From positions 1 to 49,794 of the forward strand of contig CAMFEP010000002.1 in assembly GCA_945949405.1 (NCBI GenBank): DNA of 49,794 bases, read 5' to 3'. How positions within the stretch are numbered: position 1 is the first letter of the stretch; every line of letters starts with the position of its first letter. The DNA comes from Kiritimatiellales bacterium (GTDB taxonomy: Bacteria; Verrucomicrobiota; Kiritimatiellia; UBA8416; JAIOPI01). Both the position numbers and the translations under genes were made by a program. Shown one piece after another: positions 24,079-47,623 of the stretch. Under the pieces are notes generated by a model, which saw only the letters and a list, made by a program, of their open reading frames with translations, was not told where the DNA came from and did not search any database.

Positions 24079-24079
24079 G

Positions 24080-24695: not shown

Positions 24696-27600
24696 CTATT
24701 CGAACAAATAGAAGACATTGCCCGCCGGATTCACCGCCGTGACCGTCACGTTCACCGTGATCAAATCGATGTTGTTGAATTGGTCATACACCATCACGAT
24801 GAAATAATCGCTTCCCGAGAAGTAGCGCGCCGGCGCGTAGCTCACCACCATCGTGCCGCCCGTACCGCTGGCCGCAGCACTCCCGTAGAACGGAGCCGCC
24901 AGCACCGACCACTGGATCACATCCCCGTACGGCGTGTCCGCATCCGTGGCATGCAGCGTCAGGCTGAATGGCACAGGGCTCCCGTTTTCGGACATCGTCA
25001 CATTGGCGTTGGTGCCTTCGGTGATCACGGGCGCAAAGGTCACCGTGGCCTGCGTGCCCGTGGTAAATGACGAAGTCAGATAATTGGCCCCGCCCGCGGC
25101 GCCATTGTATTCGAACAACGCGAACGAATAGGTCGTCCCCGGATACAACCCGGTTACGGTCACGTTGGTCCCGGACGCATTATACACCGCATACACACCG
25201 GTGGCGATCGCCGCCCCGTTGCTGTGCACGGAGTTCGCCGTGTAGCCAACGCCGTCCACGGGCAGGTTGGTCACGCTGCCGCCCACCCGCGCCACCAGCA
25301 GCCGGTTGGCCCCGTTGCCGCTGTTCCACGACACCGTCATCTGCGCGTTCGACACCGCCGTGAAGATCAGGTTGCTCGACGCCAGCGTCGGCTCGCTCTC
25401 CAGCACTGCGTGGCCCACCACCCGGAAGTCGTACGGATTCTGCTGCGTGTCATTGTTGGCGATGCTCACCGTGGTCGTGTAAACCCCCACCACGTCCGGC
25501 GCAAATTGCAACGTGAAGGTCGTCGCCGTCAGCCCGTTCAGGTTGCTCGACGCCGGCTGACTGGTGATGGTGAAGTTCGTCGCCCCGCTCAACGATAGCG
25601 CCGGATTGTTGGTCAGGCTCAAGGCATAGGTGGCGTTGACGTTGGTGATGGTGAAGGTGTGGCTGAAGCTCGTGTTGGCTACGATGTTGCTAAACAGCGT
25701 GCCGTCCGCGGTGGTGGGCGTCGTGTCCCCGTCAGCAATCGCCGCGCCGTTGGTCCCCAGCACGGACATCACCGGGCCGAACACCAGATCCACCTGGTGC
25801 GCCGAAACCACCACGCGACCAGTCACGCTGCCCGACCAGTTCGTGGTGGAGAAGGCCCCGTTGATCGAATGCGTACCACCCTGCGCATTGGTGATGATCA
25901 TGTAGCTGCCGGCCGCCACCGCGCCAATATTGCTCACGGTCAGCGTGCCGTTCAGGTTCACGTCATCGCCCACGTTGATCGCGGCGATGGCCCCGTTCCA
26001 CAGCGTTACCTGCAACTCACCATTGTTTTGCGAGGAGAACGCCAGGTCGTCCCCAACCGTCACGCTGGGCGCCGCGCCCAACACATGAAACACGCCGCGC
26101 CCCGTGGCCGCGTCCGTGTCGCCCAGTTCGATGTCGCCATTGTCGCTGCCCGCCCCGATCGTGATCGTGCCGTTCGTGATTGCATAGCGCCCGTTGCGGT
26201 TGCCCGTGGTGCCCTGCCCGCCCAGCACCAGCGGTTGCCCCGCGGCAATTTGCACCGCACCACCGCTCTGATTGACGATGCCCGTGGCGCCAAAACCCGC
26301 GCCCACGTTGAAATCGTTGCCCAGCGTGATCAAGCCACCCGAGAGATTCAGCGTGGAAATGCCATTCGTGGCGAAGTTGATCATGTCCACACCCACCGTG
26401 CCGCTGGACACGTTGAATGTCGCCGCGTAGTCCACGTCCAGGTCGCCCGTGCCGATCGTGTCCAACCGCCCGCCCGCCACGGTCAGCGTCGACCCGCCGC
26501 CACCCGTGAAATCACCCACCGTCACCACGCCCGCCGTCACCGCGCCGCCCGAAATCGTCAGCGCGCCCAAGCCGGCCCGCCCGACTACCAGGTCGCCCAC
26601 CGCCGTCAGCCGCCCGCTGCTCACCGTCACCGTGCCCGTCGACCCGCCGGCGTTGCCGATGTTCACATTCGTGGCCGTGCCCAGTCCGCCACTGACCGTC
26701 AGCGTGCCGCGTGCCGCCGACGCATCGCCGATCTCAATCGAATCCCCCACCGTCAACACGCCGCCCGAAAGCGTCACCGCATTGTTCGCGCCGTTATTGG
26801 CCGCGTCGCCAATCACCAAATCCCGCCCATTGCTAACAGTCACGGTGGCCACCCCGGAAATCGCCATCGTGCCCAGGCCCGCCACACCCACAAATAAATG
26901 CTCCGTGCCACCTGCACCGCCGGCATTCAACTGGCCCGCCGTCGCGCTCAAGGTGCCCGTGGAGCCCGCCACGTTGCCGATGTTCAGCGCATCCGTCACC
27001 GTCAGCACGCCGCCACTCAAGGCCACCGCGCCGCTGGCCCCGGAGTTGTTGCCCACGGTCAGATCCCGTGAGGCCAACGCTGTCCCACCCGCCACCGTGA
27101 GCGTGCTGCCCGCGTCTTCCGCGCCGGCGCTGCCCGCCGCCACGATCCAATCGCCAATGGAGGTCACCGCCGCCGTGCCCGTGACCGTCATCAAGCCCAC
27201 GCCCGCGGAGCCGATCGTCGTCGCGCCCGTGATCGTCAGCGCCCCGCCGCTGGCCCAGTACGTGCCGCGATCGCCCGAACTCTCGCCCAGCGTGAACAGG
27301 TTCTTGACGCCCAGCACACCGCCGGTCTGCTCCACCGTCCCCGTGCCGTTGTCGCTGCCGCCATCGAAGCCATTGTCACCCACGAACAGGTTCGAAACCA
27401 CTTCACCCGCCAGGGTCACCAGCGCCGTGTACCCGCCGTTGACGAAACTCACATCAATCGCCGCCGGTTCGATATCCGCCGTCCAGTTCGTGGCATTGCT
27501 CCAGTCGCGGTCCGCCCCGCCGCCCGCATCCCATTCGAAGGTCGGCACGCCAAAGGTAATGGTGTTCGTCGTCGTCAGCGCATCGTTGGCGCGATCCCCG

Positions 27601-35700: not shown

Positions 35701-36190
35701 GGATCTCATTGACGCCGCTGCCGTTCATGTTGACGGTGCTGTTGAAGGTGATATTGCCGTTGATGGGATTGATCTCACCCCGCGCCGTACCCGCGGTCGC
35801 CTCGAAATCCACCGCAAAGTCGATCGTTCCCGCGCCGGTGCTGTTGTTTTCAATCTTGGCCTGCGTGCCGCCGTTATCGAAGAAGTCCACGGTGTTTCCA
35901 CGCAAAATGAAGTCGCTGGAACTATTAAAATTGATCCCGTTCATGGAATACGAACCGTTGTTGTTCGTATTGATCAGATTGGCGCTGCCGGAGAAGGTCA
36001 GGGTGCCATAGGTGGGCAGCGTGTCGCTGCTCCAGTTGGCGGCGGTGGTCCAGAAGTTATCCCCGCCCCCGCCATCCCACGTATTCCCGGCGAAAACGAC
36101 GCTGGAGGTGGCGAGAAAAGCGGCGATCAGGAGGCTCCGGGGGAGACAGACACACACCGACCGCAAAAAAGCCAGAAAACTGCGGTGCAT
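29612..36190 (-). CDS. Autotransporter-associated beta-strand repeat (PATR) giant surface protein, upstream segment with signal peptide
   Basis: 2192-aa ORF. ATG 36190 with a signal-like N-terminus (LLIAAFLATSSVVFAGNTWDGGGGDNFW). Many PATR units (GAGTLVLSGTNSYNGNT, GAGTVSLGAAHSYTGNTEI, GAGTVRFSGANSYSANTEI). An internal duplication of about 100 aa. A ConA/LamG-like module (GWSAGW...FDEVRVATNW). Confidence 0.85.
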   Translation of the reverse strand: MHRSFLAFLRSVCVCLPRSLLIAAFLATSSVVFAGNTWDGGGGDNFWTTAANWSSDTLPTYGTLTFSGSANLINTNNNGSYSMNGINFNSSSDFILRGNTVDFFDNGGTQAKIENNSTGAGTIDFAVDFEATAGTARGEINPINGNITFNSTVNMNGSGVNEIHVYGSNSKTLTFNGAISGSSKAFKIKQNNIIVFNSANTYSGNTEIDIGEIWIGASGDISASSSIFVGNGGATADDCKFFLNDSDGGLTFSRTININDGDGTEQNRELGGLNTSGTNTFSGTIVRTGSNNKTVTLYVGSGGTVAFSGDINGDDTVMKRGAGTVRFSGANSYSANTEINAGGLHIAQGGSIAGGTVYVGLGSATGTAAEFLIADTDGGTTVNRALVINPGSGGNRTIGGNNTSGTNTFGGTITRDSDADDESVTLTATSGGLVDYTNTLSGNDTVYVTGGGVTRYSLVGKTYTGATVVSNSSTLRINAANLIDDGSALTVVTGATFDMTNNAETVGSIAGGGSITMGTAQLIAGQDNTSTTFSGIISGASPGSFVKKGTGTLVLSGTNSYNGNTFVVGGSLRFNTNQVANFSGEIRLGETTGSDAATLSIGVGGVAITNAVLVRSGSSGTKTIDGTNSSGTATFSGPVVLSNDVTVAALLSGGTLAFTSAFYGSNGVRTATLNGAGTVSFSGADNNTNLAMSATAGTVQLGKTSSSTVHALDSGLTVGGALVQLTGTGRDQVYSNSALTVNSGRLDLNGKTNACDALNGSGGAITNSTGTSLLIVGSGGTGGSYSGTIVSGGGTIALVKFGAGTLTLSGNSSFGGGTTMGSSAGQININHANALGTGALFINGANNSIDNTSGGTITIPNVFALTNGSPTFVGSNPLRISGGTSISGGNRTITVTANTLTLNGAVSEIGSRQLTKAGAGTLVLGAAAGTWTGGAQLNAGTLSIGNDNALGTGTLTLNGGTIQSTDATRSISNTTVVTASTTVGGTNAFTFNGPGTFTFSGGSRTLTVNNTGTTTINGSAYLSDDNSTTGRGQTLGGTGNVTINGAVANNNAGDTVPVNFTNSNSGTLIFNGTNTYSGVTIANAGTLQINANQGSNFSSAGIRLGDTTGSAAVTLAIGAGGVTVTNAITVRAGSSGTKTIAANNTTGTATFSGPVTMSNALTVAANAGGTLTISGAINNNGSNLTATTTGTINLNGIVSGGGKLVKAGAGTVSLGAAHSYTGNTEIDLGTLSVASGGDIANGSAVFIGNGTSGGNATLDLAASGVDVGSTIQANTDPGAATRTITSTAASGTTTLSGNVNLNNTLYLTATSGSTLALTGRLRLDNSGNQQARFSGNATISGVVTSSTGAAEVYMTGPSTGTLQISGDNTHSGYKLVVYDGTLYLNHTGALGRATSYPDKINFTTNNSTLRVGASMTHASMGMTFAGVSPAFQIDSGITFSVGGAVDKTSGTVTITKTGTGTLTFTGTSVSNDVGMVVGAGTFKGTGVSGTMNVYGGGAINPGSSPGTMNAGATDWGTNGVYVWEINDFAGTYGADPGWDKLNVTGALTVSATTGQTFTVALTSLNGGAAGAAANFTNTTIYTRSIATATSISGFSADKFMIDTNGFQHDLNGGSWVVTNTATTIDLVFTPSGFPNLSAGPNRSFTTMLGSAPATQTFGVTNTNVGTMTYTNTVTYGSGASGWASIAPAPSPLTGGTFLTHTVTVSVVGATGTFHATNTITGNQTNGNQTVVFTLTVTNIPPPAVPTATVDGKEMVRLAWTKITGLDTLILAKTNSITTDPTQGAAYSAGATIDGATVIYKGSGATLEHVVAPSRTNFCKFYAVNNDYYSTNEVGASAVTVAYRTGEIVEAFAYTNGVALSGLAGGQGWSAGWVTGAQGTKLVETNYSATGVPYFPTIGNYPATAANRLHFSDPGNGSTNRAERSFSVISTGKIYAACMLAYQFQGASKWSGISLMSNTTEKVFAGKIGSAANRTLGLDGVGGQTASSPTYEIWPYGAPGDTGKVYVVVLKYDFSTRVLTTKAYDRTQTVPTAEPATWDATDTLAAGDIVTINGVRVHAGSSDLGNTVGESYFDEVRVATNWFELLNMTGPVLDLYPTNLTFTATLGQNPATQTQTFTVSNINAGTMSYTSLVSYSVAATGWLAVAPATGLVGAASGVLSTGTGWRRPITWRAAPTRRPTRCMRARRGLRRWW

Positions 36191-36235
36191 GACCCCTCGT
36201 GTATCCCCAGAAATTTCGGCACTTCGATCTCATAC

Positions 36236-36264
36236 AGTATAGAGAGACGCCCCGAAAAGGTCAA
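36236..36264 (-). promoter_or_regulatory. Candidate sigma70-type promoter of the giant-protein operon
   Basis: Minus strand has TTGACC (36264..36259), an exact 17-nt spacer and TATACT (36241..36236), about 45 nt upstream of ATG 36190, within a locally A/T-rich stretch. Confidence 0.5.
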
Positions 36265-36288
36265 GAAATCATCAAAAACTCCCAATAC

Positions 36289-36310
36289 CATACTATTTTA
36301 GTATAGTATG
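36289..36310. promoter_or_regulatory. A/T-rich palindrome upstream of the operon promoter (candidate operator)
   Basis: CATACTAT-TTTAGT-ATAGTATG has 8-bp inverted arms. It also reads ATACTA-TTT-TAGTAT. It lies about 25 nt upstream of the putative -35. Confidence 0.35.
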
Positions 36311-36466
36311 CATGACTCTTGACGCGTTCTGGCCTTCCCGAATGGATAAACTTGATTCCAGCCAGGCAACCTGGAGCCGGCGGTCCCCGCCGGTATTTTT
36401 TGCACCTTATCCCGACCGCCGTACCTCAAAAAAAGCGGTTTTCACGCCTGCCCCGCTGCCTGCGCT

Positions 36467-38224
36467 TTACTCTGCTGTTGGGACCGAGCCAAATCGCTCA
36501 CCCCTCACGCCCCAGCCCCCCGCCCGCCAAGCCTCGCGACAGGTGAAGCGCTGGGTTTTGCCGCTGGAAGTGCGCGGCAGACGCATCGGCGGCAGCAGGC
36601 AGACGTCGTGCAGCGCCAAATCATGCTCCTCCCACACCAGCCGGCGGATGGCGCGCACGAGCGTGTCGCCATCCTTGGCCACGTCGCCCGACACCTCCAC
36701 GCCGATCACGACCCGCTCCTCTCCCTCAACCTCCACCCCGAACGCGGCCACAGCATGGGGTTGCAACTCAGGATGCGCCCGCGCCGCCGTGCGCTCGATG
36801 TCGTGCGGGTAGTGATTCCGCCCCGCCACGATGATCAGCTCCTTGATTCTCCCCGTCAAAAACAGTTCGCCCTTTTGCAAAAACCCAAGGTCGCCGCTGC
36901 GTAAGAACCTCACCCCGGGATATTCCGGCAGCGCCGCCTGAAAAGAATACTCCCCCTCGGGCGGCATCTTCCAATAGCCGGGCGAAACACTCGGCCCCGC
37001 AATCCATACCTCCCCCACCCGGCCCTCGGGCAGCGCCCCGCCCCGCTCGGGATCGACCACCACCACGCGCATCTCCGGACGCGCCACACCACATCCCACC
37101 AGCATCCGCGCATCATCCTGCGACTCCGGCACCTCGGCCACATGACGCTCCAGCGCGGCCACCGAGAAAGCTCGCACGACGGGCGGAGATTTTTTCTCGC
37201 CTCCGCTGATCATCAACGTCGCCTCCGCCATGCCGTAACAGGCATAAAACGCCTCGCGCCGGAATCCGCAGGGGGCAAAGTATTCGGCGAAGCGCGCGAA
37301 CACATCGGCGCGAATCGGTTCGGCGCCGCAAAAGGCGAGATCCCACCGGGAAAGATCGAGCGTGTCGCGCTGCTCGGGCGTGATCTGCTGTAGACACAAC
37401 TCGTACGCAAAACATGGTCCGCCGCTCGTGGTCGCGCGCGTGTCGCTCACCGCGCGCAGCCAGCGCAACGGGCGCTGCAAAAAAGAAAAGGGCGACATAA
37501 GCGTCACCGGAAACCCGCCGTAGAGCGGCTGCAGAATGCCGCCAATCAACCCCATGTCGTGATACGGGGGCAACCAGATCAGACCATGGCTCTCCGGCGA
37601 ATGCCCGAACGCGTCATAAATCACGCGCGCGTTGTGCAGCAGATTGCCGTGCGTCACGCGTACGCCCTTCGGCGTTCCCGTCGAACCGGACGTGTATTGC
37701 AGAAACGCGATGGCCTCGGCCCCCTGGCACCGCGGTTCGGCATGCGCGCCGTCCCCGGGCGCGCCTCCTGCCGCATCCACCACATGCCAGTCCAGTTCCC
37801 GTAACGCCGGCGTCGCCTCGATCAGCGGTTGCAGGCGCTCAAAGTTCCACGCGTCGGTCAGCGCATAGCGCGGCGCGCAATCCGCCACGATCGCATTGAG
37901 CCGGTGCGGTTCGCGGCGCGGATGCGGCGGGTACGCGGGCACCGCAATCACGCCCGCATAAAAACACCCGTACAGCGCGGCAATATAATCCAGCCCCGGG
38001 CGGCACAAAATCAACGCCCGTTGCCCCGCTGCATCGCGCGCCGCAAACCACGCCGCGATCGCCACCGCCGCGCGGTGCGCCTGCGCGTAGGTCATGGTCT
38101 CGCACCGCGTCGCATCATCCACGCGGAATGTGTAGGCGACGCGCTCGGGCGTCGCGCGCGCCCGCGCCTGGACCAGTTCCGCGAAGGTCCCCGCCTCCGT
38201 CACGCCATCGCTCCCGCGGCCCAT
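36467..38224 (-). CDS. Fatty acyl-AMP ligase (FAAL)
   Basis: 585 aa. The adenylation core FLQYTSGSTGTPKGVRVTHGNLLHN, YGMAEATL, GDLGF and SSGKTQR, plus the N-terminal ALILCRPGLDYIAALYGCFYAGVIAVPAYPP pattern, are typical of FadD32-like FAALs. Its start overlaps the thioesterase stop by 25 nt. Confidence 0.85.
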   Translation of the reverse strand: MGRGSDGVTEAGTFAELVQARARATPERVAYTFRVDDATRCETMTYAQAHRAAVAIAAWFAARDAAGQRALILCRPGLDYIAALYGCFYAGVIAVPAYPPHPRREPHRLNAIVADCAPRYALTDAWNFERLQPLIEATPALRELDWHVVDAAGGAPGDGAHAEPRCQGAEAIAFLQYTSGSTGTPKGVRVTHGNLLHNARVIYDAFGHSPESHGLIWLPPYHDMGLIGGILQPLYGGFPVTLMSPFSFLQRPLRWLRAVSDTRATTSGGPCFAYELCLQQITPEQRDTLDLSRWDLAFCGAEPIRADVFARFAEYFAPCGFRREAFYACYGMAEATLMISGGEKKSPPVVRAFSVAALERHVAEVPESQDDARMLVGCGVARPEMRVVVVDPERGGALPEGRVGEVWIAGPSVSPGYWKMPPEGEYSFQAALPEYPGVRFLRSGDLGFLQKGELFLTGRIKELIIVAGRNHYPHDIERTAARAHPELQPHAVAAFGVEVEGEERVVIGVEVSGDVAKDGDTLVRAIRRLVWEEHDLALHDVCLLPPMRLPRTSSGKTQRFTCREAWRAGGWGVRGERFGSVPTAE

Positions 38225-39054
38225 ACCGTCCGCGCCAGCGCCAGCACCACGCCGTCATCCACGCGCCGCAGGCGGTGCATATACGCCACCCCGCCCTCCC
38301 CGGACGCGTCGATCGTCTCCACCGTCACGTTCTCCTCCGGCCCCAACTCCGCCAAAAACTGAATATCCAGTTCCTGCAGGCGACTCCCGTCCGCAAGCGC
38401 CGGCGGCAGTGTGTCGAGGCACCACGCGATGTATCGCACGTGATTGACGTGCTGATTGAAGTCGAGGTCGCTGCCCCCGGCGCGCCAACTCTGGCTGGCG
38501 ACCGGCGTCGCCCCCGCTGGCCACACCAGGTTCACCTCCGGCAACTCAACCAGACGCGTCCGCCGCGCAAGCGCCACCTCGCGCACAAATCCCGGCAACC
38601 CCACCGGACGGCGCCGCGCGCTGTTCAACACCATCCAGCTCGTCGTGGCCGCCCCGATCTGCCCGCCGGCGCTGTCATAAATGCCGAATTCGCGAAAGGC
38701 GCAGACCCGGTTCAGCTCCGAGGGCCAGGTCTCGATCGTCACGGTGTTATGCCACATGGGCGTGCGCACCAGCACCAGCCGCAATCGGCAGAGCACCCAC
38801 GTCAGCCCTTGCGCCTCCAGCGCCGCAATGCCAAACCCCAGCGCCCGCGCATGGTTGCTGGCGGCGTTTTGTAGATAATTGCAGAGCGCGGGCACGGTCA
38901 ATTCGCGCCGCCCGTTCACCTCGTAGGCGCGAACATCATAGCGCTCCACCCCAATCGCGGGACTGTCCCCGGCTTCGGCAGGGGGCGGTAAATCTGCGTG
39001 TTCCAACACAATTTCTCCGGTTGCGTATTGACGAATTGCGTGGCTTGTTGCCAA
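38200..39054 (-). CDS. Acyl-ACP thioesterase (FatA/FatB family)
   Basis: YEVNGRRELTVPALCNYLQNAASNHA and DLDFNQHVNHVRYIAWCLD match the acyl-ACP thioesterase double hot-dog signature. There is no early ATG: the start is TTG 39054 or a downstream GTG (39009 or 38949). Confidence 0.78.
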   Translation of the reverse strand: MATSHAIRQYATGEIVLEHADLPPPAEAGDSPAIGVERYDVRAYEVNGRRELTVPALCNYLQNAASNHARALGFGIAALEAQGLTWVLCRLRLVLVRTPMWHNTVTIETWPSELNRVCAFREFGIYDSAGGQIGAATTSWMVLNSARRRPVGLPGFVREVALARRTRLVELPEVNLVWPAGATPVASQSWRAGGSDLDFNQHVNHVRYIAWCLDTLPPALADGSRLQELDIQFLAELGPEENVTVETIDASGEGGVAYMHRLRRVDDGVVLALARTVWAAGAMA

Positions 39055-39094
39055 ACTGCCGGGCGATTATAAAGGACGTAGCGCGGGCGAACAA
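39045..39094. promoter_or_regulatory. Compact divergent promoter region (thioesterase/FAAL versus desaturase operon)
   Basis: The ATTATAAA core (39066..39073) reads TATAAA on the plus strand (TTGTTG 17 nt upstream) and a perfect TATAAT on the minus strand (TTGTTC 17 nt upstream). Pattern match only. Confidence 0.3.
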
Positions 39095-39115
39095 CCAGTT
39101 TACAAACACGAAATC

Positions 39116-40093
39116 ATGGACACGACATTTGCCACCGCCGCCGCCCCGCGTAAACCCCTGGTCCATGCGGCCAATATTGCCGCGCACCGCATGCAGCTCG
39201 CGCTGGCCACCGTGGCCGTCGCCCTGCCCACCATGGCCACCGTCCTCGCCTTCGTGCTCTGGCTCGGCTACGGCATCGGGTTTGGCCCGGTCGAGGCCAC
39301 GCTGCTCGCCGGCTTTTACGCGCTGACCATCATCGGCATCGGCTGCGGCTACCACCGGCTCTTCACGCACCAGGCCTACAAAACCACCACCCCCGTGCGC
39401 GTCGTCCTCGCAATCCTCGGCTCCATGGCGTCGCAAGGCCCCGTCCTCTTTTGGTGCGCCATCCACCGCCGGCATCACAACTTCGCCGACACCGACGGCG
39501 ATTCGCATTCACCCTACTTCAACAAGGAAACGCGCATGAACCGGCTCGTCGGTTTCTGGCACGCGCACACCGGCTGGCTCTTCAGCACCGAGGTCACGGA
39601 CTGGGGCCGCTACATCCCCGACCTGCTCAAGGATCGCCCGATCTTCCGCGTGAACCAGCTTTATTTCGTCTGGATCGCCCTCGGCCTCGCAATTCCCGCG
39701 GCCATCGGCGGGCTCGTCCACGGCACCCTCGCCGGCGCCGGCTACGGGCTCCTCTGGGGCGGACTCGTGCGCACGTTTTTCGTCCACCACAGCACGTGGT
39801 GCATCAACTCCGTCTGCCACGTCTTCGGGCGCCGCCCCTTCAAGATCAACGATGAGGCCCGCAACAACTGGTTCGTGGCGATCCTGACCTTCGGTGAGGG
39901 CTGGCACAACAACCACCACGCCTTCCCCTACGCCATGAGCCACCGCTTTAAGTGGTACCAGTACGATCCCAACGGCGGCATCGTCAAACTCCTCGCCAAA
40001 TTCGGCCTCGCTTGGGATTTGCGCAGCCCCAGCGCCGAGGCCGTGCGCGAAAAACTGGCATCAGCGCCTGCGGGCCATAACGCGCCCGGCTGA
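39116..40093 (+). CDS. Membrane fatty-acid (acyl-CoA/acyl-lipid) desaturase, copy 1
   Basis: Three His boxes of Delta9-type desaturases: GYHRLFTH, WCAIHRRHHNFADTDGDSHSP, GEGWHNNHHAFP. N-terminal TM helices. Confidence 0.85.
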   Translation: MDTTFATAAAPRKPLVHAANIAAHRMQLALATVAVALPTMATVLAFVLWLGYGIGFGPVEATLLAGFYALTIIGIGCGYHRLFTHQAYKTTTPVRVVLAILGSMASQGPVLFWCAIHRRHHNFADTDGDSHSPYFNKETRMNRLVGFWHAHTGWLFSTEVTDWGRYIPDLLKDRPIFRVNQLYFVWIALGLAIPAAIGGLVHGTLAGAGYGLLWGGLVRTFFVHHSTWCINSVCHVFGRRPFKINDEARNNWFVAILTFGEGWHNNHHAFPYAMSHRFKWYQYDPNGGIVKLLAKFGLAWDLRSPSAEAVREKLASAPAGHNAPG

Positions 40094-40103
40094 CGGAAAA
40101 CCC

Positions 40104-41069
40104 ATGGACACCGGGGTCACAGCCATACGTGGCGTCATGAAGGCCAGCCCGCAGGCCCGCCGCTACCAGCGCACCATCGCGTTCCTGATTGTGGTGATTC
40201 CCTTCGCGGGCGTGCTTGCCGCGGCGGCGCATCTGTGGGGCTGGCACGTGTCCGCGCTGAATTTGATCCTGCTCGCCGTCATGTACACGCTGACCATCGT
40301 GGGAATTACCGCCGGCTTCCACCGCCACTTCACCCATCGCGCCTTCGAAGCCGCCATCCCGGTGCGCTGGGCCCTCGGCATCCTCGGCTCCATGGCCGGC
40401 CAGGGACCCCTGCTCTTCTGGGTCGCCACCCACCGCCGCCACCATGCCTTCAGCGACCGCGAGGGCGACCCGCATTCCCCGCACACCGACGGCCACACCC
40501 CCATCCACGGCATCTGGCGCGGCATCTGGCACGCGCACCTGGGCTGGATGTTCTCCGATGAAATCACCAGCTGGCCGCATTACGCGGCGGACCATATGCG
40601 CGACAAGCTGACCTTCCGCCTGAACCAGACCTACTTTTTCTGGCTGTTCCTGGGCCTGGCCCTGCCCGCGGCAATCGGCGGCCTCGTGACGATGCGCTGG
40701 TCCGGCGCCTTGAGCGGGTTCCTCTGGGGCGGACTCGTCCGCATGTTCCTCGCCAATCACGTCTGCTGGTGCGTTGGTTCCGTCTGCCACGCGTTCGGCA
40801 CTCGGCCCTTCCAAAATCGCGACCACAGCGCCAACAATTACGTCGTCGCCCTGCTGGCCTTCGGCGAAGGCCTGCAAAATAACCATCACGCCTTTCCCGG
40901 CTCCGCCAACCACCGCGTCGCCTGGTGGGAACCGGATTTGAGCAGCTGGATCATCCACGGCTTGAAAAAACTCGGACTGGTCTGGTCGGTCCGCGTGCCG
41001 ACTCACGAGGAAGTCGAAGAGGCCCGCCGGGCCACCACCATCAACACACCCGCGGAGGCAAGCGCATGA
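40104..41069 (+). CDS. Membrane fatty-acid desaturase, copy 2 (tandem paralog)
   Basis: Same His boxes (GFHRHFTH, WVATHRRHHAFSDREGDPHSP, GEGLQNNHHAFP). Starts 10 nt after copy 1. Its stop overlaps the ACP start as ATGA. Confidence 0.85.
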   Translation: MDTGVTAIRGVMKASPQARRYQRTIAFLIVVIPFAGVLAAAAHLWGWHVSALNLILLAVMYTLTIVGITAGFHRHFTHRAFEAAIPVRWALGILGSMAGQGPLLFWVATHRRHHAFSDREGDPHSPHTDGHTPIHGIWRGIWHAHLGWMFSDEITSWPHYAADHMRDKLTFRLNQTYFFWLFLGLALPAAIGGLVTMRWSGALSGFLWGGLVRMFLANHVCWCVGSVCHAFGTRPFQNRDHSANNYVVALLAFGEGLQNNHHAFPGSANHRVAWWEPDLSSWIIHGLKKLGLVWSVRVPTHEEVEEARRATTINTPAEASA

Positions 41070-41344
41070 ATGCCGAAACCCCGATTGTCAGGGCGCCGTC
41101 CGAAGCCGAGATCCGCACCTGGATCATCCGCAACGTCGCGAACGCCGCAAAAATTCCCGAGGCGCAGCTCGACATCCACACGCCGCTCGCCGAGTACGGT
41201 CTCAATTCGCGCCAGGCCGTCGGCCTTTCAGGCGCCCTCGAGGAATGGCTGAAGCGCGAACTCGATCCGACCCTCGTCTGGGATCATCCGAGCATCGAGC
41301 AGCTCGCGCGCCATCTCTCCCAACTCAAACCCGCCGACGCGTGA
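41066..41344 (+). CDS. Stand-alone acyl carrier protein
   Basis: 92 aa. Phosphopantetheine-site context EYGLNSRQAV and LVWDHPSIEQLARHL, typical of PKS/FAAL-associated carrier domains. GGAGG lies 7 nt upstream of ATG 41066. Confidence 0.75.
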   Translation: MNAETPIVRAPSEAEIRTWIIRNVANAAKIPEAQLDIHTPLAEYGLNSRQAVGLSGALEEWLKRELDPTLVWDHPSIEQLARHLSQLKPADA

Positions 41345-43074
41345 CCACCACCCACCAGCAACCGGCAGCCCCGATTGCGATCATCGGCATCGGCTGCCGC
41401 TTTCCAGGCGCGCCATCGCCGGAAGCCTTCTGGTCCCTGCTGCGCGATGGCACCCATGCCGTGCGCGAAATTCCACCCGACCGCTGGGATGCCGCCGCGC
41501 TCTACGCCCCCTACCTGATGGAGCCCGGCAAAATGAACACCCGCTGGGCGGGCCTGATCGAGGGCATCGACCAGTTCGATCGCAAATTTTTCGGCATCTG
41601 GCCGGATCAGGCCGCGCACATGGATGTGCTGCAACGCCTGCTGCTCGAAGTGTCTTACGAGGCCCTCGAAGACGGCGGCCAGGATCTGAACGCGCTGGCG
41701 GGCACGCCCGTCGGCGTCTTTCAGGGCGTCCCACCGGGCGACTATGGCCGTATGATGCTGGCCAATCCCGATAAAATGGGCCCCTACACGAGCACCGGCG
41801 CGCTCCTGTCCATCTCGGCCAATCGCATCTCCTATCAGTTCGATTTTCGCGGCCCCAGCATCGCGCTCGACACGGCCTGTTCGTCGTCGCTCGTGGCGGT
41901 GCATCTGGCCTGCCAGAGCCTGCGCGCCGGGGAATGCACCATGGCCCTCGCCGGCGGCGTCAATGCGATCCTCTTTCCGCCGCTCTCCGTCAGCCTCACC
42001 AAGGCCGGCGCGATGTCGCCCGACGGCTGTTGCCACGCCTTCGATGCCGCGGCCAACGGCTATGTGCGCGGCGAGGGCGTGGGCGTCGTGCTTTTAAAAC
42101 CCCTCGACGCAGCCCTGCGCGATGGTGATCGCGTTCACGCCGTGATTCTGGGCACCGCCGTGAATCAGGACGGGCGCACGAACGGACTGACCGCGCCAAA
42201 CCGCTGGGCCCAGGAGGAGGTCCTGCGGCGGGCCTGCGCGAGCGCCGGTATCAACCCCGCCGACGTGCAGCACGTCGAGGCGCACGGCACCGGCACCCTC
42301 TTGGGCGACCCCATCGAAGCCCTGGCGCTGGGCGCGGTGCTGAAACCCGGTCGCGCACCGGATGCGCCCTGCCGCATCAGCTCAGTCAAAACCAACATCG
42401 GACACCTGGAAACCGCCGCGGGCGTGGCCGGCCTGATCCGCGTGGCGCTCGAATTGCGCGAGCGCACCTTCACGCCCATGCTGCATTTTAAAACGCCCAA
42501 CCCGCATATCGATTTCGATGCGCTCGGTCTGGCCGTGCAGCGCCGCTGCGAACCCTGGCCTGCACCGCCGAACGGTGCGCGCCGCCTTGCAGGTATCAGC
42601 TCCTTTGGTTTTGGCGGCACGAATTCGCATGCGGTTCTGTCCGAGGCGCCGCCCAGTCCTCCCGTTCCTCCGCGCCCGGCAGGGCCTTACCTGCTGCCCC
42701 TCTCCGCCAAATCGCCTGCCTCGCTGCGCGCCCTCGTCTCCGCCTATCGCGCGGCCTGTTCCACCGTCCGCGTCGACGAACCCTACGACTACTGCTATAC
42801 CGCCGCGCGACGTCGCACGCATTTCTCCCAGCGCGCCGCCTTCGTTTTCACGACGCAACCAGAACTACTACAGCAACTCGACGCCTGGCTGGAAGGCCGT
42901 GTGGCAACATCCGCCACGCCCCTCGCCGCCGCAGAAGCCTATCGCAACAACCAGCCCGTCGATTGGTCCACCTGCTTCCCCATCACCGTGCCTCCCGCGC
43001 CCCTCCCACACTACCCCTGGGACCACGAGCGTTGCTGGTGGGGCGAAACCGAAAGTGCCACCAATCGGCGATAG
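41341..43074 (+). CDS. Stand-alone PKS-type ketosynthase with vestigial KS-AT linker (no AT)
   Basis: IAIIGIGCRFPGA, DTACSSSLVAVHLA (Cys), VEAHGTGT and NIGHLETAAG (His, His). The ~118-aa tail runs from LLPLSAKSPASLRAL to LPHYPWDHERCWW with no GHSxG acyltransferase core. GTG 41341 overlaps the ACP stop as GTGA; an ATG at 41245 is the alternative. Confidence 0.88.
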   Translation: MTTTHQQPAAPIAIIGIGCRFPGAPSPEAFWSLLRDGTHAVREIPPDRWDAAALYAPYLMEPGKMNTRWAGLIEGIDQFDRKFFGIWPDQAAHMDVLQRLLLEVSYEALEDGGQDLNALAGTPVGVFQGVPPGDYGRMMLANPDKMGPYTSTGALLSISANRISYQFDFRGPSIALDTACSSSLVAVHLACQSLRAGECTMALAGGVNAILFPPLSVSLTKAGAMSPDGCCHAFDAAANGYVRGEGVGVVLLKPLDAALRDGDRVHAVILGTAVNQDGRTNGLTAPNRWAQEEVLRRACASAGINPADVQHVEAHGTGTLLGDPIEALALGAVLKPGRAPDAPCRISSVKTNIGHLETAAGVAGLIRVALELRERTFTPMLHFKTPNPHIDFDALGLAVQRRCEPWPAPPNGARRLAGISSFGFGGTNSHAVLSEAPPSPPVPPRPAGPYLLPLSAKSPASLRALVSAYRAACSTVRVDEPYDYCYTAARRRTHFSQRAAFVFTTQPELLQQLDAWLEGRVATSATPLAAAEAYRNNQPVDWSTCFPITVPPAPLPHYPWDHERCWWGETESATNRR

Positions 43075-43140
43075 TCATCGTCGTTATCCACCACCTCTCC
43101 GTGCCTCCGTGTCTCCGTGGTGAATCCGAATTGGCCCGCC

Positions 43141-43857
43141 TTACCGAAACACCTCCCCACCCACCACCGCCAGCCGCGCCGGAAACAGCGTCTCAACCCG
43201 CGCCCCGGAGCCGGCCGTCCCGGCCGGTGAACTTGAGCCGGCCATCCCCGCCGGTACGCCTGCCGGCAGCAACGCCTCCAACTCACTTTTCAAAAAACCC
43301 TTGCGCACGGAAAGCTGTCCATCCGCCAACGCAAAACTGCGCCGAAAAAACAAACCGTTCAACAGCGTCACGCCCATATAGGCAAAGGCCCCGCGCCGGA
43401 TGTCCGCCAGCACATACCCGCGCGCGGCCACATCCCGCACACGCGCCAAAATCGGGCGAATCGCCTCGTCCGGCAGATGATGCAAAAAATGATTCGCGAA
43501 CACGTAGTCCACGGGTCCGAACCGCGCCAGTTCCTCCGCCCCCGCGCACACCACTGTGAGCCCCTCCTCGCGCGCCCACCGGCGTTGCGCCCACGCCACC
43601 GTGCGCGCGTCGCTATCCAGCGCCGTCACGCGCAATCGCAACCCGAGTTGCCGGCTGCGCTGCAGCAACCAGGCCGGGATATCGCATCCACCGGCGCCAA
43701 GATCAACAAGGTGGTATTCCCGCTCCGGAGCGTCGCGCATGTCCCGCAGCACCGTGCGCGCCAGCAGCGTGCGATAGCGTGACACAAGCCGGTTGATCCC
43801 GCCAAACTGCGCGATCGTGCGCAACAGCATCGCCTCGTCGCAATCCACCGCATCCAT
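43141..43857 (-). CDS. Class I SAM-dependent methyltransferase
   Basis: Motif I YHLVDLGAGGCD, followed by ALDSD and FANHFLHHL. Start is uncertain: ATG 43857 (MDAVDCDEAM), GTG 43905, or ATG 44034 inside the octamer array. Confidence 0.7.
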   Translation of the reverse strand: MDAVDCDEAMLLRTIAQFGGINRLVSRYRTLLARTVLRDMRDAPEREYHLVDLGAGGCDIPAWLLQRSRQLGLRLRVTALDSDARTVAWAQRRWAREEGLTVVCAGAEELARFGPVDYVFANHFLHHLPDEAIRPILARVRDVAARGYVLADIRRGAFAYMGVTLLNGLFFRRSFALADGQLSVRKGFLKSELEALLPAGVPAGMAGSSSPAGTAGSGARVETLFPARLAVVGGEVFR

Positions 43858-43923
43858 CGCCTCCGCCACCCAGATGCGCTTCGAAAAATCAGGCAACCCC
43901 AACACGCGTCCCTCTTTGTCCCA

Positions 43924-44059
43924 GTCCCACAGTCCTACTGTCCCACAGTCCCACTGTCCCACTGTCCTACCGTCCCACAGTCCCACTGTCCTACCGTCCC
44001 ACAGTCCCACTGTCCTACCGTCCCACTGTCCCATTGTCCTACGGTCCTATTGTCCTACC
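43924..44059. repeat. Tandem octanucleotide array, 17 units of GTCCYAYN
   Basis: Read directly: gtcccaca gtcctact gtcccaca gtcccact gtcccact gtcctacc and so on. Two exact 24-nt super-units lie at 43972..43995 and 43996..44019, with a 1-mismatch copy before them. The array contains the FMO stop and ATG 44034. Confidence 0.9.
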
Positions 44060-45207
44060 ATCCCAAACTTCCGCGCAACCCACCTCCGCATGGTCCTCCC
44101 CAACAACACCCGCGCGATAAACTGACCACGCAGCCACGACGCCACCCGCCCCCTGCGCGTCCCCAGCCACATCCCCCGCGTGGCCAGCCGCGCCGATGCA
44201 TGAAACGCTTTCCGCCGCACCCGATCATATTCCCTCAACTGCCGTTCAACCTCCGCACCAAGCACCCCACCACCAAGCACCTTCCCCAGCACGTCCGATA
44301 AATACGCCGCATCGCCAAATCCAATATTCATTCCCTGCCCGCCAATCGGGCTCATCACATGCGCCGCATCGCCACACAGCACCACCCGCCCGCGAAAATA
44401 CCGCGCACACACGAACTGGCTGACACGAAACGGACTTTCGAATTGCTTGCTCCGGCCCGCCAGATCAATCCCCGACCGCACGCGCACCAGCGCTGCCATA
44501 AAATCCCCCGGCGGTTCGCGCATGTACGCATCCGTCATCACGATCCAGCGCCGCCGTCCATCCGGCAGCGGAAAAGCCTCCACTGCCCCCGTCTCCGTGA
44601 AAAACAAATGCGCATCCTGCCCCAGCGCCCCGTCATCATCGAAATCCGCCATCAAAAACGTCTGCCCCAACCGCTTCGTGCGTATCCCAATCCCCGCCAG
44701 CCCGCGCACCGCGCTGTCATGCCCGTCGCTTCCCACCAGAAACCGCCCGGTCAATGCGCCAGCGTCCACATCCCACCCACGCACGCGTACACGTACACGT
44801 TGCGCGTCCTGCTCGAAACCCACAATCTCCACGCCGCGCATCAGCGTCACCGAAGGAAACCGCCGCGCACCCGCTTCGAGAATCTCCAGCGTCACGGCCT
44901 GTGGCAGGCACAGGATGAACGGATACAGCCCGGGTAGCCCGTCAAAATCCAAATCCCCAAGCAGCCGCCGGCGATCATGCACCGCGACGCGCCGCACCGG
45001 CACCCCGCGACGCACGCATTCGGCGTCGAGCCCGACGGTATTCAAAATCGCGAGCGACGGCGGCGTGATGCCAATCGCCATCGAGCGCGCCTCGGGCGCC
45101 GCGCGCCGCTCCATCACCAGCGTCCGCACCCCGCGTTGCCCCAGCAGATTGGCCAGCAACAACCCCACCGCCCCGCCACCCGCAATGATCACGTCGTGCG
45201 ATTCCAT
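44047..45207 (-). CDS. FAD-dependent aromatic-ring monooxygenase (UbiH/PHBH-type)
   Basis: DVIIAGGGAVGLLLANLLGQRG Rossmann motif and GDAAHVMSPIGGQGMNIGFGDA are typical of group A flavin monooxygenases. ATG 45207; the ORF extends to a GTG at 45219. Confidence 0.85.
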   Translation of the reverse strand: MESHDVIIAGGGAVGLLLANLLGQRGVRTLVMERRAAPEARSMAIGITPPSLAILNTVGLDAECVRRGVPVRRVAVHDRRRLLGDLDFDGLPGLYPFILCLPQAVTLEILEAGARRFPSVTLMRGVEIVGFEQDAQRVRVRVRGWDVDAGALTGRFLVGSDGHDSAVRGLAGIGIRTKRLGQTFLMADFDDDGALGQDAHLFFTETGAVEAFPLPDGRRRWIVMTDAYMREPPGDFMAALVRVRSGIDLAGRSKQFESPFRVSQFVCARYFRGRVVLCGDAAHVMSPIGGQGMNIGFGDAAYLSDVLGKVLGGGVLGAEVERQLREYDRVRRKAFHASARLATRGMWLGTRRGRVASWLRGQFIARVLLGRTMRRWVARKFGMVGQ

Positions 45208-45244
45208 CTGTGCGCTCACACCCGATTTCGCCCGAGCCTACTGT

Positions 45245-45327
45245 GACGGCTCGCCAGAGGCTCGCCCTCCAGTTGGCATAACAGACTCTCGATCAAGTAA
45301 ATGGAGGGCGAGGCTGCGCCGAGCCGC
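45245..45327. repeat. Inverted pair of repeat family C (long hairpin), in the PKS/FMO spacer
   Basis: CTCGCCCTCCA (45261..45271) pairs with TGGAGGGCGAG (45302..45312) over 11 bp around a 30-nt loop. An outer GGCTCG/CGAGCC pairing extends it. The right arm is identical to 657..682. Confidence 0.75.
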
Positions 45328-45364
45328 CGCCGGGAATGTGTTTTATGCCAAACGCACACCGCTT

Positions 45365-46519
45365 TCACGATGCGCCCGCGCAGCCACCAGCCGCCACCCC
45401 AACCTCGGCAATCTGGCCCACGTACGACAGCGCGGCGGACTCAACCGTCAGCCCCGGCCCAAACGCCATCGCAATGATCCGATCGCCCGCCCGCGCCTCC
45501 GGCTGCGCCCACAATTCGCGCAAGACGAACAGCACCGTCGCGCTGCTCATGTTGCCGTACTGCCGCAAGACCTCACGCGACGCCGCCACCTGCTCCGGCG
45601 CCAGCCCCAAGCCACTTTGCACCTTGTCCAGAATCGCGCGCCCGCCCGGATGCACCGCCCAGTAGCGCACGCCCTCTAGCCCGGTCTCCTGCGCCCGCAA
45701 CAACGGCGCGACCAATTCATGAATCGCACCACCGATGATCTTCGGCACATAACTCGACAACACAATGTCGAACCCATGATCGCCGATCGACCAGGCCATT
45801 TCGCCCTCGCCCTCGGGAATCACCGTGGACGCAAAGGCCCCCAGCGCCAGCGCGCGCTGCCCCGCGGGCACGGGGCGCGCACTGACAATCGCGCACGCAG
45901 CCCCGTCCGCGAACAACGCGTTGGCCAGCATATCGTCGAGCCCGCCGCGCGGATGCAAATGCAGCGTGCAGAGCTCCAGGCACAGCACAAGCACGACGGC
46001 CTTGGGATCGGCGGCGCAAAACTGCTCGGCCATGCGCAGCGCCGGAATCGCCGCATAGCAGCCCATGAACCCAAGCTGATAGCGCTGCACCGAGGGCCGC
46101 AAGCCCGCCTCCTTGACGATGTAATAATCCGGCCCCGGATTGGCAAAACCCGTGCAGGACACGGTAATTACATGCGTCACGTCCGCAGGCTCAATGCCCG
46201 GACAGGCGGCGAGCGTACGCCGCGCCAGGTCCACCGCGATCGGGCGCGCATGCTTCACGAAAAACGCGTTGCGCTCCCCCGTGCGCGGGTCGTCGATTTC
46301 CCCATCCGCATCCACGCGATACAATTCGCGCGGCGCGGCGCTCATGAAATCGCTCACCACCGAGTGGCGCTTGTCGATGCTGGCGTTGCGATAAATCTGA
46401 TGCAACACGCGCCGCTGGCGCTCCGTGCGCACCCAGTGCTGCATGCGCGCCTCAATGTATTCCTGGCGGTAGGCCGTGCCAGGCACAAACGTCTCGATGT
46501 GGCGCACAAACACGGACAT
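45365..46519 (-). CDS. Type III polyketide synthase (chalcone/stilbene synthase superfamily)
   Basis: 384 aa from ATG 46519 (MSVFVRHIETF). Catalytic contexts TVSCTGFANPG (Cys), YWAVHPGG (His) and YGNMSSATVLF (Asn). GTG 46513 has better SD spacing and is an alternative start. The upstream part of ORF 45365..47041 is not PKS-like. Confidence 0.9.
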   Translation of the reverse strand: MSVFVRHIETFVPGTAYRQEYIEARMQHWVRTERQRRVLHQIYRNASIDKRHSVVSDFMSAAPRELYRVDADGEIDDPRTGERNAFFVKHARPIAVDLARRTLAACPGIEPADVTHVITVSCTGFANPGPDYYIVKEAGLRPSVQRYQLGFMGCYAAIPALRMAEQFCAADPKAVVLVLCLELCTLHLHPRGGLDDMLANALFADGAACAIVSARPVPAGQRALALGAFASTVIPEGEGEMAWSIGDHGFDIVLSSYVPKIIGGAIHELVAPLLRAQETGLEGVRYWAVHPGGRAILDKVQSGLGLAPEQVAASREVLRQYGNMSSATVLFVLRELWAQPEARAGDRIIAMAFGPGLTVESAALSYVGQIAEVGVAAGGCAGAS

Positions 46520-46657
46520 GCCTCCAGTATGACACCGGCAGGATGGGCAACAACTGAAAATTTGGTATGGTCCTCCTGTGCCGCCTCCCGGCGACCTTGC
46601 GTCGCCGGAGGCAAAATTATGGCACCTGCCGCACAAGGCCGCAGGGAGCCACGCCCA

Positions 46658-47623
46658 ATGGAGAACGCCATGCGCCCATTTTTCCGCCTGAAGGCAAATT
46701 TCGACGGCCTCATCGCCACCATGGGTTGGGTCGCCGCCACGGTAACCCTCGCCGGCTTCGCCGGTCGCGCACATTGGCTGCTCGATCTCTGCACGCACTT
46801 TCGCGCCCAATACCTGCTTGCCCTGCTGGCCGCCTCCATCCTGCTCGCGCGCCGCCTCCCGCGCCAGGCCCTGGCCTTCGCGCTGCTCGCCCTGCTGAAT
46901 GCCGCAATCCTGCTGCCCATGTTCCTGCCGCGCGCAACCCCCGCCGCCGGCATCACCCCCGCCATCCGCGCGATGCTGATGAACGTGAACACCTACGACG
47001 GGAGCCCGCCCCGCGTCGCCGCCGCCATCGCGGAATTCCACCCCGACATCCTCGTGCTGATCGAAGTCAGCCCCCTCTGGCTGGAGTCCCTCGCGCCAGC
47101 CCTGACGAATTTTTCGCAGCGCCTCGCCGAACCTCGCGACGACAACTTTGGCATCGCGCTCTACAGCCGCTTCCTATGGACCAACGCCGCCCCACACCTC
47201 ATCGGCGCCGCGGGCGTCCCCACCCTGCGGGCCACCATCGACACACCAGATGGCCCGGTCACCATCATCGCCACGCATCCCGTGCCGCCCGGCGGCGCGC
47301 AATATTCCGCCTGGCGCAATGACCAGCTCGCCCGCCTGCCCTCCCTCGTGCACGCGCCGCCCGCGCCCGTCCTGCTCCTCGGCGACCTGAACACCACCCC
47401 CTGGAATTTCTATTTCAACCGCCTCCTGCGCGACGCCGGCTTTCACGACAGCGCCCGCGGCCGCGGCCTCCACCCCACCTGGCCCGTCGGAGTCCCGCTT
47501 CTCTGGATCCCCCTCGACCATTGCCTGCACAGCCCGGAAATCGCCATCGCCGCCCGCACCGTCGGCCCCGATGTGGGCTCCGATCACTACCCCTTGATTG
47601 TGGACTTTTGCCTGAAAAAGTGA
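46658..47623 (+). CDS. Endonuclease/exonuclease/phosphatase (EEP) family membrane protein
   Basis: N-terminal TM segments, then HPDILVLIEV, LLGDLNTTPW and GSDHYPLIVDF, typical of EEP-family proteins. Possible starts are 46619, 46658 and 46670. The part of ORF 45719..47623 upstream of these is antisense to the PKS gene. Confidence 0.72.
   Translation: MENAMRPFFRLKANFDGLIATMGWVAATVTLAGFAGRAHWLLDLCTHFRAQYLLALLAASILLARRLPRQALAFALLALLNAAILLPMFLPRATPAAGITPAIRAMLMNVNTYDGSPPRVAAAIAEFHPDILVLIEVSPLWLESLAPALTNFSQRLAEPRDDNFGIALYSRFLWTNAAPHLIGAAGVPTLRATIDTPDGPVTIIATHPVPPGGAQYSAWRNDQLARLPSLVHAPPAPVLLLGDLNTTPWNFYFNRLLRDAGFHDSARGRGLHPTWPVGVPLLWIPLDHCLHSPEIAIAARTVGPDVGSDHYPLIVDFCLKK

Follow-up and report, generated by a model that had tools for sequence, protein, structure and literature searches.

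Described systems closest to the locus

Two kinds of described gene set come closest to the locus analyzed here: the srs/hid-type operons, in which a type III polyketide synthase (PKS) gene stands with genes for an oxidoreductase and a methyltransferase (MT), and the jamABC and polyyne cassettes, in which fatty acids are desaturated while bound to an acyl carrier protein (ACP). The locus, positions 36467–46519 of a 49.8-kb stretch of Kiritimatiellales DNA (the window, meaning the whole stretch at its full length), carries one module of each kind. Module A (43141–46519, minus strand) is recognizable as a known srs/hid-type alkylresorcinol operon, and module B (36467–43074) as kin to the jamABC and polyyne cassettes, a gene set for thiotemplated fatty acid desaturation. 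With high confidence, we read the 10-kb stretch as a lineage-specific juxtaposition of two separately evolving lipid modules. That module B of the window lineage hands its chain to the type III PKS is a more tentative proposal, which we place a little below an even chance; each enzymatic step, the kind of unsaturation and the hand-off itself are inferred.

The same three enzyme types as in module A, encoded co-directionally, are found in srsABC of Streptomyces griseus, in hidABC of picocyanobacteria (hierridin) and in a planctomycetal operon. This architecture occurs in 58 planctomycetal strains and in cyanobacterial hidABC, and the PKSs tested there made alkylresorcinols; the Myxococcus xanthus type III PKS FtpA is cited in the same study (PMC10896814). 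By published description, the hid and Planctomycetota operons run MT-oxidoreductase-PKS, whereas module A runs PKS, flavin-dependent monooxygenase (FMO), MT. None of the srs, hid and planctomycetal operons has beside it a cassette encoding a FAAL (fatty acyl-AMP ligase), desaturases, an ACP and a ketosynthase (KS), unlike the operon in the window.

For module B, the likeness to jamABC and ttuABC lies in the joint encoding of an acyl-ACP ligase or FAAL, a membrane desaturase of the SCD type and a dedicated ACP. The fatty acid is bound to the ACP while the jamABC and ttuABC proteins work on it, and a KS receives the result (PMC8341276, PMC8406139). These sets have one desaturase, whereas module B has an H-box and Q-box pair, plus a KS devoid of an acyltransferase (AT) and a hot-dog thioesterase (TE). 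The seven-gene polyyne cassette (cay, pgn) shares with module B the FAAL and the Des(HxxHH)-Des(QxxHH)-ACP core; it further has a third desaturase (Des3), an alpha/beta-hydrolase TE, a rubredoxin and a P450, whereas the window has a hot-dog TE of the FatA/B type. The cay and pgn desaturases, which are reported to have HXXHH and QXXHH boxes and are described as JamB-related, act on FAAL-loaded, ACP-bound chains, and the thioesterase is the release enzyme in polyyne cassettes (PMC9828172). Polyynes need all three desaturases (PMC8406139, PMC9828172).

Systems that join ACP loading to a type III PKS offer a third comparison. The logic of the cylindrocyclophane pathway (CylA/B, CylC, CylD-H, CylI) resembles that of the window in its order of ACP loading, dimetal tailoring, KS extension and type III PKS; CylB-bound chains are tailored, PKS-extended and passed to the type III PKS CylI, which forms the resorcinol (PMC8086630, PMC8406957). 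The Cyl cluster encodes the halogenase CylC, complete type I modules and CylK, whereas the window encodes membrane desaturases, a bare KS and no CylK. In the window, the stretch from the loading ACP to the type III PKS has no complete type I PKS module (AT, ACP) and, compared with the Cyl cluster, the window halves are a recent, unconserved juxtaposition. In the ftp pathway of Myxococcus xanthus, a FAAL and a stand-alone ACP act alongside the type III PKS FtpA toward alkylresorcinol-derived quinones. The window shares these three components; the ftp cluster, compared by description only, is without desaturases, KS and acyl-ACP thioesterase. The window system would work like Cyl or Ftp but falls outside both on the features compared, having no full PKS module and not being conserved as a unit.

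The FadD32-Pks13 pair has the FAAL, ACP, KS loading architecture of module B. The window ACP and KS best match the N-terminal ACP (3–78) and KS (97–535) of the Pks13 model and the FAAL matches FadD32, all with scores far below the family cut-offs, and Pks13 has an AT, a C-terminal ACP and a TE domain that the window KS is without: an architectural resemblance, not membership. In the literature searched, we found no described natural cluster of this composition, as the original prediction had anticipated in stating that it knew of no cluster combining all of these parts. Module A is of an already known kind; module B, within the jamABC/polyyne kind, is new in that a bare KS and a hot-dog TE accompany a core of two desaturases.

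Anatomy and relatives of the two modules

All three module A genes lie co-directionally on the minus strand in the order PKS-FMO-MT. The type III PKS (45365–46519, −) matches Chal_sti_synt_N and Chal_sti_synt_C, and the Cys-His-Asn contexts TVSCTGF, WAVHPGG and YGNMSSATV reported for it earlier are found in its translation. Its start is the ATG at 46519, preceded by a GGAGG ribosome-binding site and fitting the lengths of homologues; the open reading frame (ORF) that contains it reaches an upstream GTG at 47041 (558 aa) through a low-complexity extension rich in Gly, Arg and Asp. With M. tuberculosis PKS18 and rice Os07g0271500 among its best PDB matches, the enzyme is probably of the long-chain alkylresorcinol/alkylpyrone kind. 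The FMO (44047–45219, −) is an FAD-dependent aromatic hydroxylase of the UbiH/PF01494 type (FAD_binding_3 8.9e-49; Ubi-OHases 4.8e-41). The MT (43141–43905, −, with an ORF extending to 44034) is a class I S-adenosylmethionine (SAM) methyltransferase (Methyltransf_25/12/11; NCBIfam PRK06202 5e-48). The first ~43 codons of its ORF consist of a tandem repeat, encoding GLWDGRTV repeats, and the real start lies near 43905; in a sibling assembly (L048) the MT is called as 254 aa. The repeat itself (43924–44047), between the FMO stop and the MT start, comprises 5.2 copies of a 24-nt unit with an 8-nt sub-period GTCCCACT (Tandem Repeats Finder score 199, 92% matches). In the proposed module A chemistry, the PKS would convert a long acyl starter and malonyl-CoA to an alkylresorcinol, the FMO would hydroxylate the ring and the MT would then methylate it, giving a methoxy-alkylresorcinol, hydroquinone or quinone.

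The trio is a recurrent unit. Homologues of the PKS number 7915 at E <= 1e-20, many of them on contigs of metagenome-assembled genomes (MAGs) of the Planctomycetes-Verrucomicrobia-Chlamydiae group, Bacteroidota and delta-proteobacteria. The full trio recurs in 12 of 45 PKS-anchored loci, which upholds its earlier designation as an srs-like alkylresorcinol/alkylquinone unit; 16 more loci have PKS and MT alone, and an Arthrobacter locus among those with the trio has the operon in PKS-MT-FMO order. The closest named PKS homologue (77% identity) lies in a Lentisphaerae MAG, the closest genome relative, whose locus (L044) reads PhyH-T2SSG-hisI-x-x-S24-PKS-FMO-MT-pagL-PATR. Protein identities to the window around this PKS (PhyH 71%, hisI 83%, PKS 77%, FMO 62%, MT 65%, PATR 65%) place L044 and the window on the same chromosomal backbone. 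In L044 the site of the six-gene cassette (window 36190–43141) is occupied by pagL, a lipid A deacylase gene (L044 13292–13834). A second PKS relative (L046, 78%) runs hisI-S24-PKS-FMO-MT to the contig end, and the genes adjacent to the PKS in L044 and L046, two of the 12 trio loci, are 59–61% (FMO) and 65–66% (MT) identical to those of the window. By these comparisons, module A is ancestral at this chromosomal site. An S24/LexA-like gene stands divergent from the PKS in relatives; the window instead has an ORF with no Pfam hit (46567–47322, +).

Module B consists of two divergent operons. On the minus strand, the JamA/CayA/FadD32-like FAAL (36467–38224, −) has a Pfam AMP-binding match (1.8e-66) and a DIP2-like C-terminal domain; among NCBIfam families it matches fatty-acyl-AMP ligases and FadD32 best, and it is 57% identical to the FAAL of a metagenomic cassette, L049. 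Preceding it, the hot-dog acyl-ACP thioesterase of the FatA/FatB family (38200–39054, −; PF01643 5.5e-24, PF20791 7.9e-13) retains the catalytic motif D-x-N-Q-H-V-N (NQHVN) and matches in the PDB the bacterial structure 4GAK (2.2e-30), Arabidopsis FatA and Umbellularia FatB. The TE and FAAL genes overlap by 25 nt, an arrangement of translational coupling. A terminator-like hairpin with a T-run (36433–36449, −) directly past the FAAL stop likely ends the TE-FAAL operon; it comes from a consensus scan in which the total of terminator-like sites across the region was not above that of shuffled sequence. The gap between the divergent operons (39055–39115) measures 61 nt, against the ~60 nt claimed before, and presumably holds a shared promoter region; a consensus scan of the gap gave no sigma-70-like promoter match.

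The plus-strand operon begins with two membrane di-iron desaturases of the SCD type, both PF00487: DesA (Des1; 39116–40093, +), with an HxxHH third histidine box (WHNNHH), and DesB (Des2; 40104–41069, +), with a QxxHH third box (GEGLQNNHH). DesB matches the SCD1 structure 4YMK (9.7e-24), and its QNNHHAF stretch is invariant across 20 relatives. They are followed by a stand-alone ACP of the JamC/polyyne type (41066–41344, +; YGLNS...LVWDHPS; PP-binding 4.6e-14) and a stand-alone KS without AT (41341–43074, +; Pfam KS_N, KS_C, KAsynt_C_assoc and a CurL-like linker). The ATGA (41066) and GTGA (41341) stop/start overlaps described earlier are present, as are the TE/FAAL overlap and the convergent orientation of KS and MT. 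The KS triad is intact, with Cys (TACSSS), His (EAHGTGT) and His (NIGH), and the protein retains a KS-AT linker and a post-AT motif, in which the KS sequence LPHYPWDHERCWW aligns with LPTYPFAKESYW; AT, ACP and reductive domains are missing. Its best single-domain PDB match is CurL (1e-140), and it resembles KS domains of the cis-AT type. The trans-AT bimodule 7ZMA, nominally the top match (753 bits), was set aside, its score being the sum over two KS domains (358 + 387 bits). All six module B ORFs are full length with catalytic motifs intact. The genes, domain calls and coordinates of the original prediction thus all hold, with strong Pfam family matches; its count of ten genes does not, as nine were found.

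Kinship with the polyyne cassettes, which the original prediction had missed for the FAAL, desaturases and ACP, is traceable gene by gene. Among plasmids searched by tblastn, NZ_CP108769 of Streptomyces goshikiensis carries the set FAAL-Des-Des-ACP-Des3-alpha/beta hydrolase-rubredoxin-P450, which matches the definition of the seven-gene polyyne cassette (PMC8406139). With the first four genes of this set, the window FAAL, Des1, Des2 and ACP share 37%, 42%, 48% and 39% identity; the two loci agree exactly in the order Des1(H)-Des2(Q)-ACP and in the motifs, with the window FAAL on the opposite strand in a divergent operon. The Q-box motif GEGLQNNHHAFPGS is the same in the window DesB and the second Streptomyces polyyne desaturase. 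More generally, the third histidine box reads WHNNHH in every DesA and the first polyyne desaturase, and GEGLQNNHH in every DesB and the second. In a neighbour-joining tree, which carries no support values, cassette desaturases from different phyla form DesA and DesB clades; the window DesA clusters with those of L049, Gemmataceae, Limnocylindrales and Pyrinomonadaceae, and the second desaturase of the polyyne cassette falls in the DesB clade. The window ACP groups with the desaturase-associated (JamC/polyyne-type) ACPs, apart from the second ACP type of several cassettes. A solitary Nostoc acyl-CoA desaturase is ~43% identical, compared with 42–48% for the polyyne-cassette desaturases. With the Streptomyces cassette as tblastn query, no third (Delta12-like) desaturase, alpha/beta-hydrolase, rubredoxin or P450 was found in the 49.8-kb window. 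Module B is, as far as its genes tell, a relative of the alkyne and polyyne cassettes and not a member of the polyyne set; since three desaturases are required and the third is absent, a tetrayne-type product is not expected.

Related cassettes are frequent and variable. The two closest, both metagenomic, are L049 (Des2 66% identical; DesA-DesB-ACP-KS-TE-ACP-FAAL) and contig P0122 (Des2 76%), in which FAAL-ACP-TE diverges from Des-Des-ACP-KS in the same layout as in the window. Both have a second ACP between TE and FAAL that is absent in the window, where tblastn over all 49.8 kb found none. Further cassettes read FAAL-DesA-DesB-ACP-[KS-AT-DH-ACP]-FabH-like, DH being dehydratase (Gemmataceae), FAAL-DesA-DesB-ACP-P450-acyltransferase-ACP-KS (Limnocylindrales), TauD-FAAL-DesA-DesB-ACP-KS followed by a giant PKS/nonribosomal peptide synthetase (NRPS) (Pyrinomonadaceae) and ACP-FAAL-ACP-KS (metagenome locus L053); stand-alone KS relatives of 567–610 aa recur in other cassettes. 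The FabH-like gene after the Gemmataceae cassette, considered as a possible type III PKS, matches only ACP_syn_III_C. We also collected 80 metagenome loci anchored on Des2 relatives, 25 of them with at least 4 kb on both sides; among these 25, FAAL was present in 16, FAAL with ACP in 15, two desaturases in 14 and KS in six. Another locus, L125, has one ACP, an AT-less KS, a hot-dog TE and a phosphopantetheinyl transferase (PPTase), with no type III PKS. The FatA/B-type thioesterase was found in none of these 80 more distant loci and, among the loci compared, accompanies the cassette only in L049 and P0122; a search with the TE against plasmids returned only distant acyl-ACP thioesterases of Bacteroidota and Firmicutes.

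FAAL-DesA-DesB-ACP cassettes are common in soil and freshwater metagenomes (~15 well-flanked loci, besides those named above) and in MAGs that bear the labels Pyrinomonadaceae, Limnocylindrales and Gemmataceae. Downstream of these cassettes lie, variously, a bare KS; KS-AT-DH-ACP; a PKS/NRPS of >4600 aa; a P450 with LpxL-like acyltransferases; or a CMAS-type methyltransferase accompanied by a 4HBT thioesterase and a PPTase. Plasmid matches in Polaromonas, Burkholderia gladioli and Ralstonia have the desaturases beside an ACP and mostly also a FAAL, with a KS following in Polaromonas. Two such variants (Des-ACP-MT-Des-...-FAAL), on plasmid bgla_4p of B. gladioli BSR3 and plasmid 2 of Polaromonas JS666, are flanked by insertion sequences (IS), consistent with the reported mobility of alkyne cassettes. 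From NCBI, no Des2 homologue above 58% identity was among the best 120, though the proteins of the Lentisphaerae MAG were in the searched collection; the Lentisphaerae relative thus probably lacks the cassette altogether, which is only suggestive as that genome is a MAG.

A possible hand-off between the modules

Module B sits between the MT gene and a PATR surface-protein gene, with 66 nt between the convergent KS and MT genes. The juxtaposition is no assembly chimera, since an independent second assembly (L048), 98.99% identical over 39394–47331 (7.9 kb, 48 mismatches), has this MT|KS-ACP-Des junction too. The two sequences differ by one gap of ~32 nt, possibly in the 43924–44047 repeat. A search around module B for insertion scars recovered no flanking direct or inverted repeats, IS or integrase, and no Rfam hits; the only tRNA, a tRNA-Val at 49712, is conserved also in L044. 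Composition carried no usable transfer signal: the GC content at third codon positions is 0.81 in the block, 0.78 in the trio and 0.85 in the backbone, and the codon use of the block, near that of the backbone, is uninformative.

In the proposed hand-off, the FAAL would activate a free fatty acid as its adenylate and transfer it to the JamC-type ACP, and DesA (HxxHH) and DesB (QxxHH) would introduce an ene or yne into the ACP-bound chain. The AT-less KS would take the chain and add one C2 unit from malonyl-ACP loaded in trans, and the hot-dog TE would either supply the fatty acid from fatty acid synthase (FAS) or release a product. The resulting unsaturated acyl-ACP or beta-ketoacyl-ACP would prime the type III PKS, and an unsaturated, methoxylated alkylresorcinol or alkylquinone would result. 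The chemistry is compatible and the transfer plausible by analogy with Cyl, Ftp and the engineered JamABC-PKS pairing; JamABC and TtuABC prime a type III PKS in E. coli (PMC8341276). At the locus itself, the proposal is supported by the modules lying 66 nt apart in two independent assemblies.

Several observations weigh against a hand-off and would be expected if the modules were independent neighbours, with the trio making a FAS-derived alkylresorcinol or quinone, and module B, separately acquired at a variable spot, releasing through its own TE an unsaturated fatty acid extended by C2, or else a beta-keto acid or methyl ketone. Only the window and its 99%-identical sibling show the pairing. 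In all 47 other PKS loci (43 genome loci on PKS relatives, plus others), the trio is on its own, with no homologue of FAAL, TE, desaturase, ACP or KS within 10 kb; L044 lacks all five at this locus, and every other module A locus examined, L044 and L046 included, is without a FAAL/ACP neighbour. Conversely, none of the 80 desaturase-anchored loci has the type III PKS, FMO or MT, and the cassette stands alone or with other partners wherever else it was found. The picture of one integrated cluster in the original prediction is not sustained by these comparisons, which amount to the synteny check it had itself proposed; of its overall reading, the domain calls and the srs-like trio remain. The L049 and L125 cassettes end in KS and hot-dog TE with no type III PKS, L049 appearing self-contained, and module B likewise has its own thioesterase. 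Modules A and B are transcribed convergently and so do not form one operon. The window moreover lacks an electron donor such as rubredoxin, a third desaturase and a second ACP. Gene content differs between relatives on both sides of the trio (pagL, S24, T2SSG), marking a possible insertion hot spot.

The PKS itself also bears no mark of a new partner. It departs from the >=90% consensus at five positions, four of them shared with at least one of its five closest homologues, of which two, L044 and L046, were checked and lack any cassette gene next to the trio. The only private change at a >=90% conserved position is the conservative L233V; the enzyme thus shows no remodelling for a new starter relative to orthologues lacking the block next to the PKS, again in keeping with independence.

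Set against independence are the improbability of a 6.6-kb lipid cassette landing 66 nt from a PKS operon unless the site is a hot spot, and the compatible chemistry with its natural (Cyl, Ftp) and engineered (JamABC with HsPKS1) precedents (PMC8086630, PMC8341276). The window cassette is also without the second ACP of its two closest relatives, and its output could go elsewhere; the loss of this ACP, when considered as evidence of a hand-off, is weakened by L125, which likewise has one ACP. On one side stands a low prior, more than 120 other loci being without the pairing, and on the other the small likelihood that the modules became neighbours by accident; on balance we regard independent neighbours as a serious contender somewhat under even odds, and the hand-off as close to, though still short of, even. 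The same guarded standing, just under one in two, applies to the two-module anatomy and the hand-off taken together.

A stronger form of cooperation, put forward in the original prediction, is one dedicated and conserved pathway, in which the TE pulls a chain from FAS for the FAAL to reload onto the ACP and, after its modification by the desaturases and KS, the trio finishes the product. All parts are present and intact, and the translational coupling of TE and FAAL suits consecutive steps and fits a TE that supplies a FAS-derived acid. We know of no source of free medium-chain acids for ligases of the JamA/TtuA type. Such ligases require these acids (PMC8341276), which a supplying TE would suit. 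The cluster is, however, not conserved as a unit, the synteny comparison having come out against it, and the thioesterase of the polyyne cassettes is a release enzyme (PMC9828172). In L049 and L125 the TE gene lies directly 3' of the KS gene, and a releasing role, as in polyyne cassettes, fits this position. A TE that frees a FAS chain for reloading is possible, no better supported than a TE that releases the cassette product, and we judge the dedicated, conserved pathway improbable.

Module B might also be a decaying or incomplete remnant that has lost a second ACP, a third desaturase and an electron donor and makes nothing. The window has no second ACP, rubredoxin, third desaturase or alpha/beta-hydrolase, and the closest relatives keep the extra ACP between TE and FAAL. 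Yet none of the six ORFs is truncated and their catalytic motifs are intact, their tight translational coupling is preserved, the genes are ~99% identical and undisrupted in a second strain, and a single ACP beside an AT-less KS and a hot-dog TE is the set-up of L125 as well. We consider a remnant very improbable.

Cooperation of the modules would mean that the locus specifies a phenolic lipid whose side chain is unsaturated and may bear an alkyne, and that a mobile ACP-desaturation cassette can be grafted onto an existing alkylresorcinol operon. We know of no sequence marker for acetylenase activity. More speculatively, and on balance unlikely, the two-desaturase cassette might make an alkyne or enyne acyl-ACP that the KS extends once and the PKS cyclizes, giving a clickable, methoxylated alkynyl-resorcinol or quinone membrane lipid in an uncultivated Lentisphaerota lineage, a counterpart in nature to the engineered pairing of JamABC with a type III PKS; similar cassettes in Acidobacteriota, Chloroflexota, Planctomycetota and Lentisphaerota would then point to a large body of so far unexplored, ACP-templated ene/yne lipid chemistry in phyla other than Proteobacteria, Actinobacteria and Cyanobacteria. 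Even without cooperation, uncultivated phyla of soil and freshwater widely carry the polyyne-type H-box/Q-box pair together with its FAAL and ACP, and its varied downstream partners widen the known range of cassette chemistry and give concrete expression targets. The locus is a credible genome-mining lead and opens no long-standing question.

Flanks of the locus

Outside the two modules, the window is ordinary chromosome, with glycine-cleavage P protein genes and genes for pyruvate dehydrogenase E1, E2 and E3. The right flank holds hisI, a PhyH dioxygenase gene and the tRNA-Val gene. Directly to the left of the FAAL gene lie three giant PATR/fn3/TSP3 surface proteins. Two giant upstream ORFs (2192 and 1691 aa), considered as ArsA/ArsD-like type I FAS/PKS partners of the locus, were rejected as they are PATR/fn3 surface proteins. 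Positions 14239–19231 and 21313–36190 encode an exosortase (EpsH)-TPR fusion, a PEP-CTERM protein and three PATR/fn3/TSP3-repeat proteins in a row; this exosortase/PEP-CTERM/PATR stretch looks like a cell-surface protein sorting island beside the lipid genes. A possible operator, the AT-rich and partly palindromic stretch ATACTATTTTAGTATAGTAT (36283–36305), lies upstream of the PATR gene, with a sigma-70-like match (36264–36236, −) close by.

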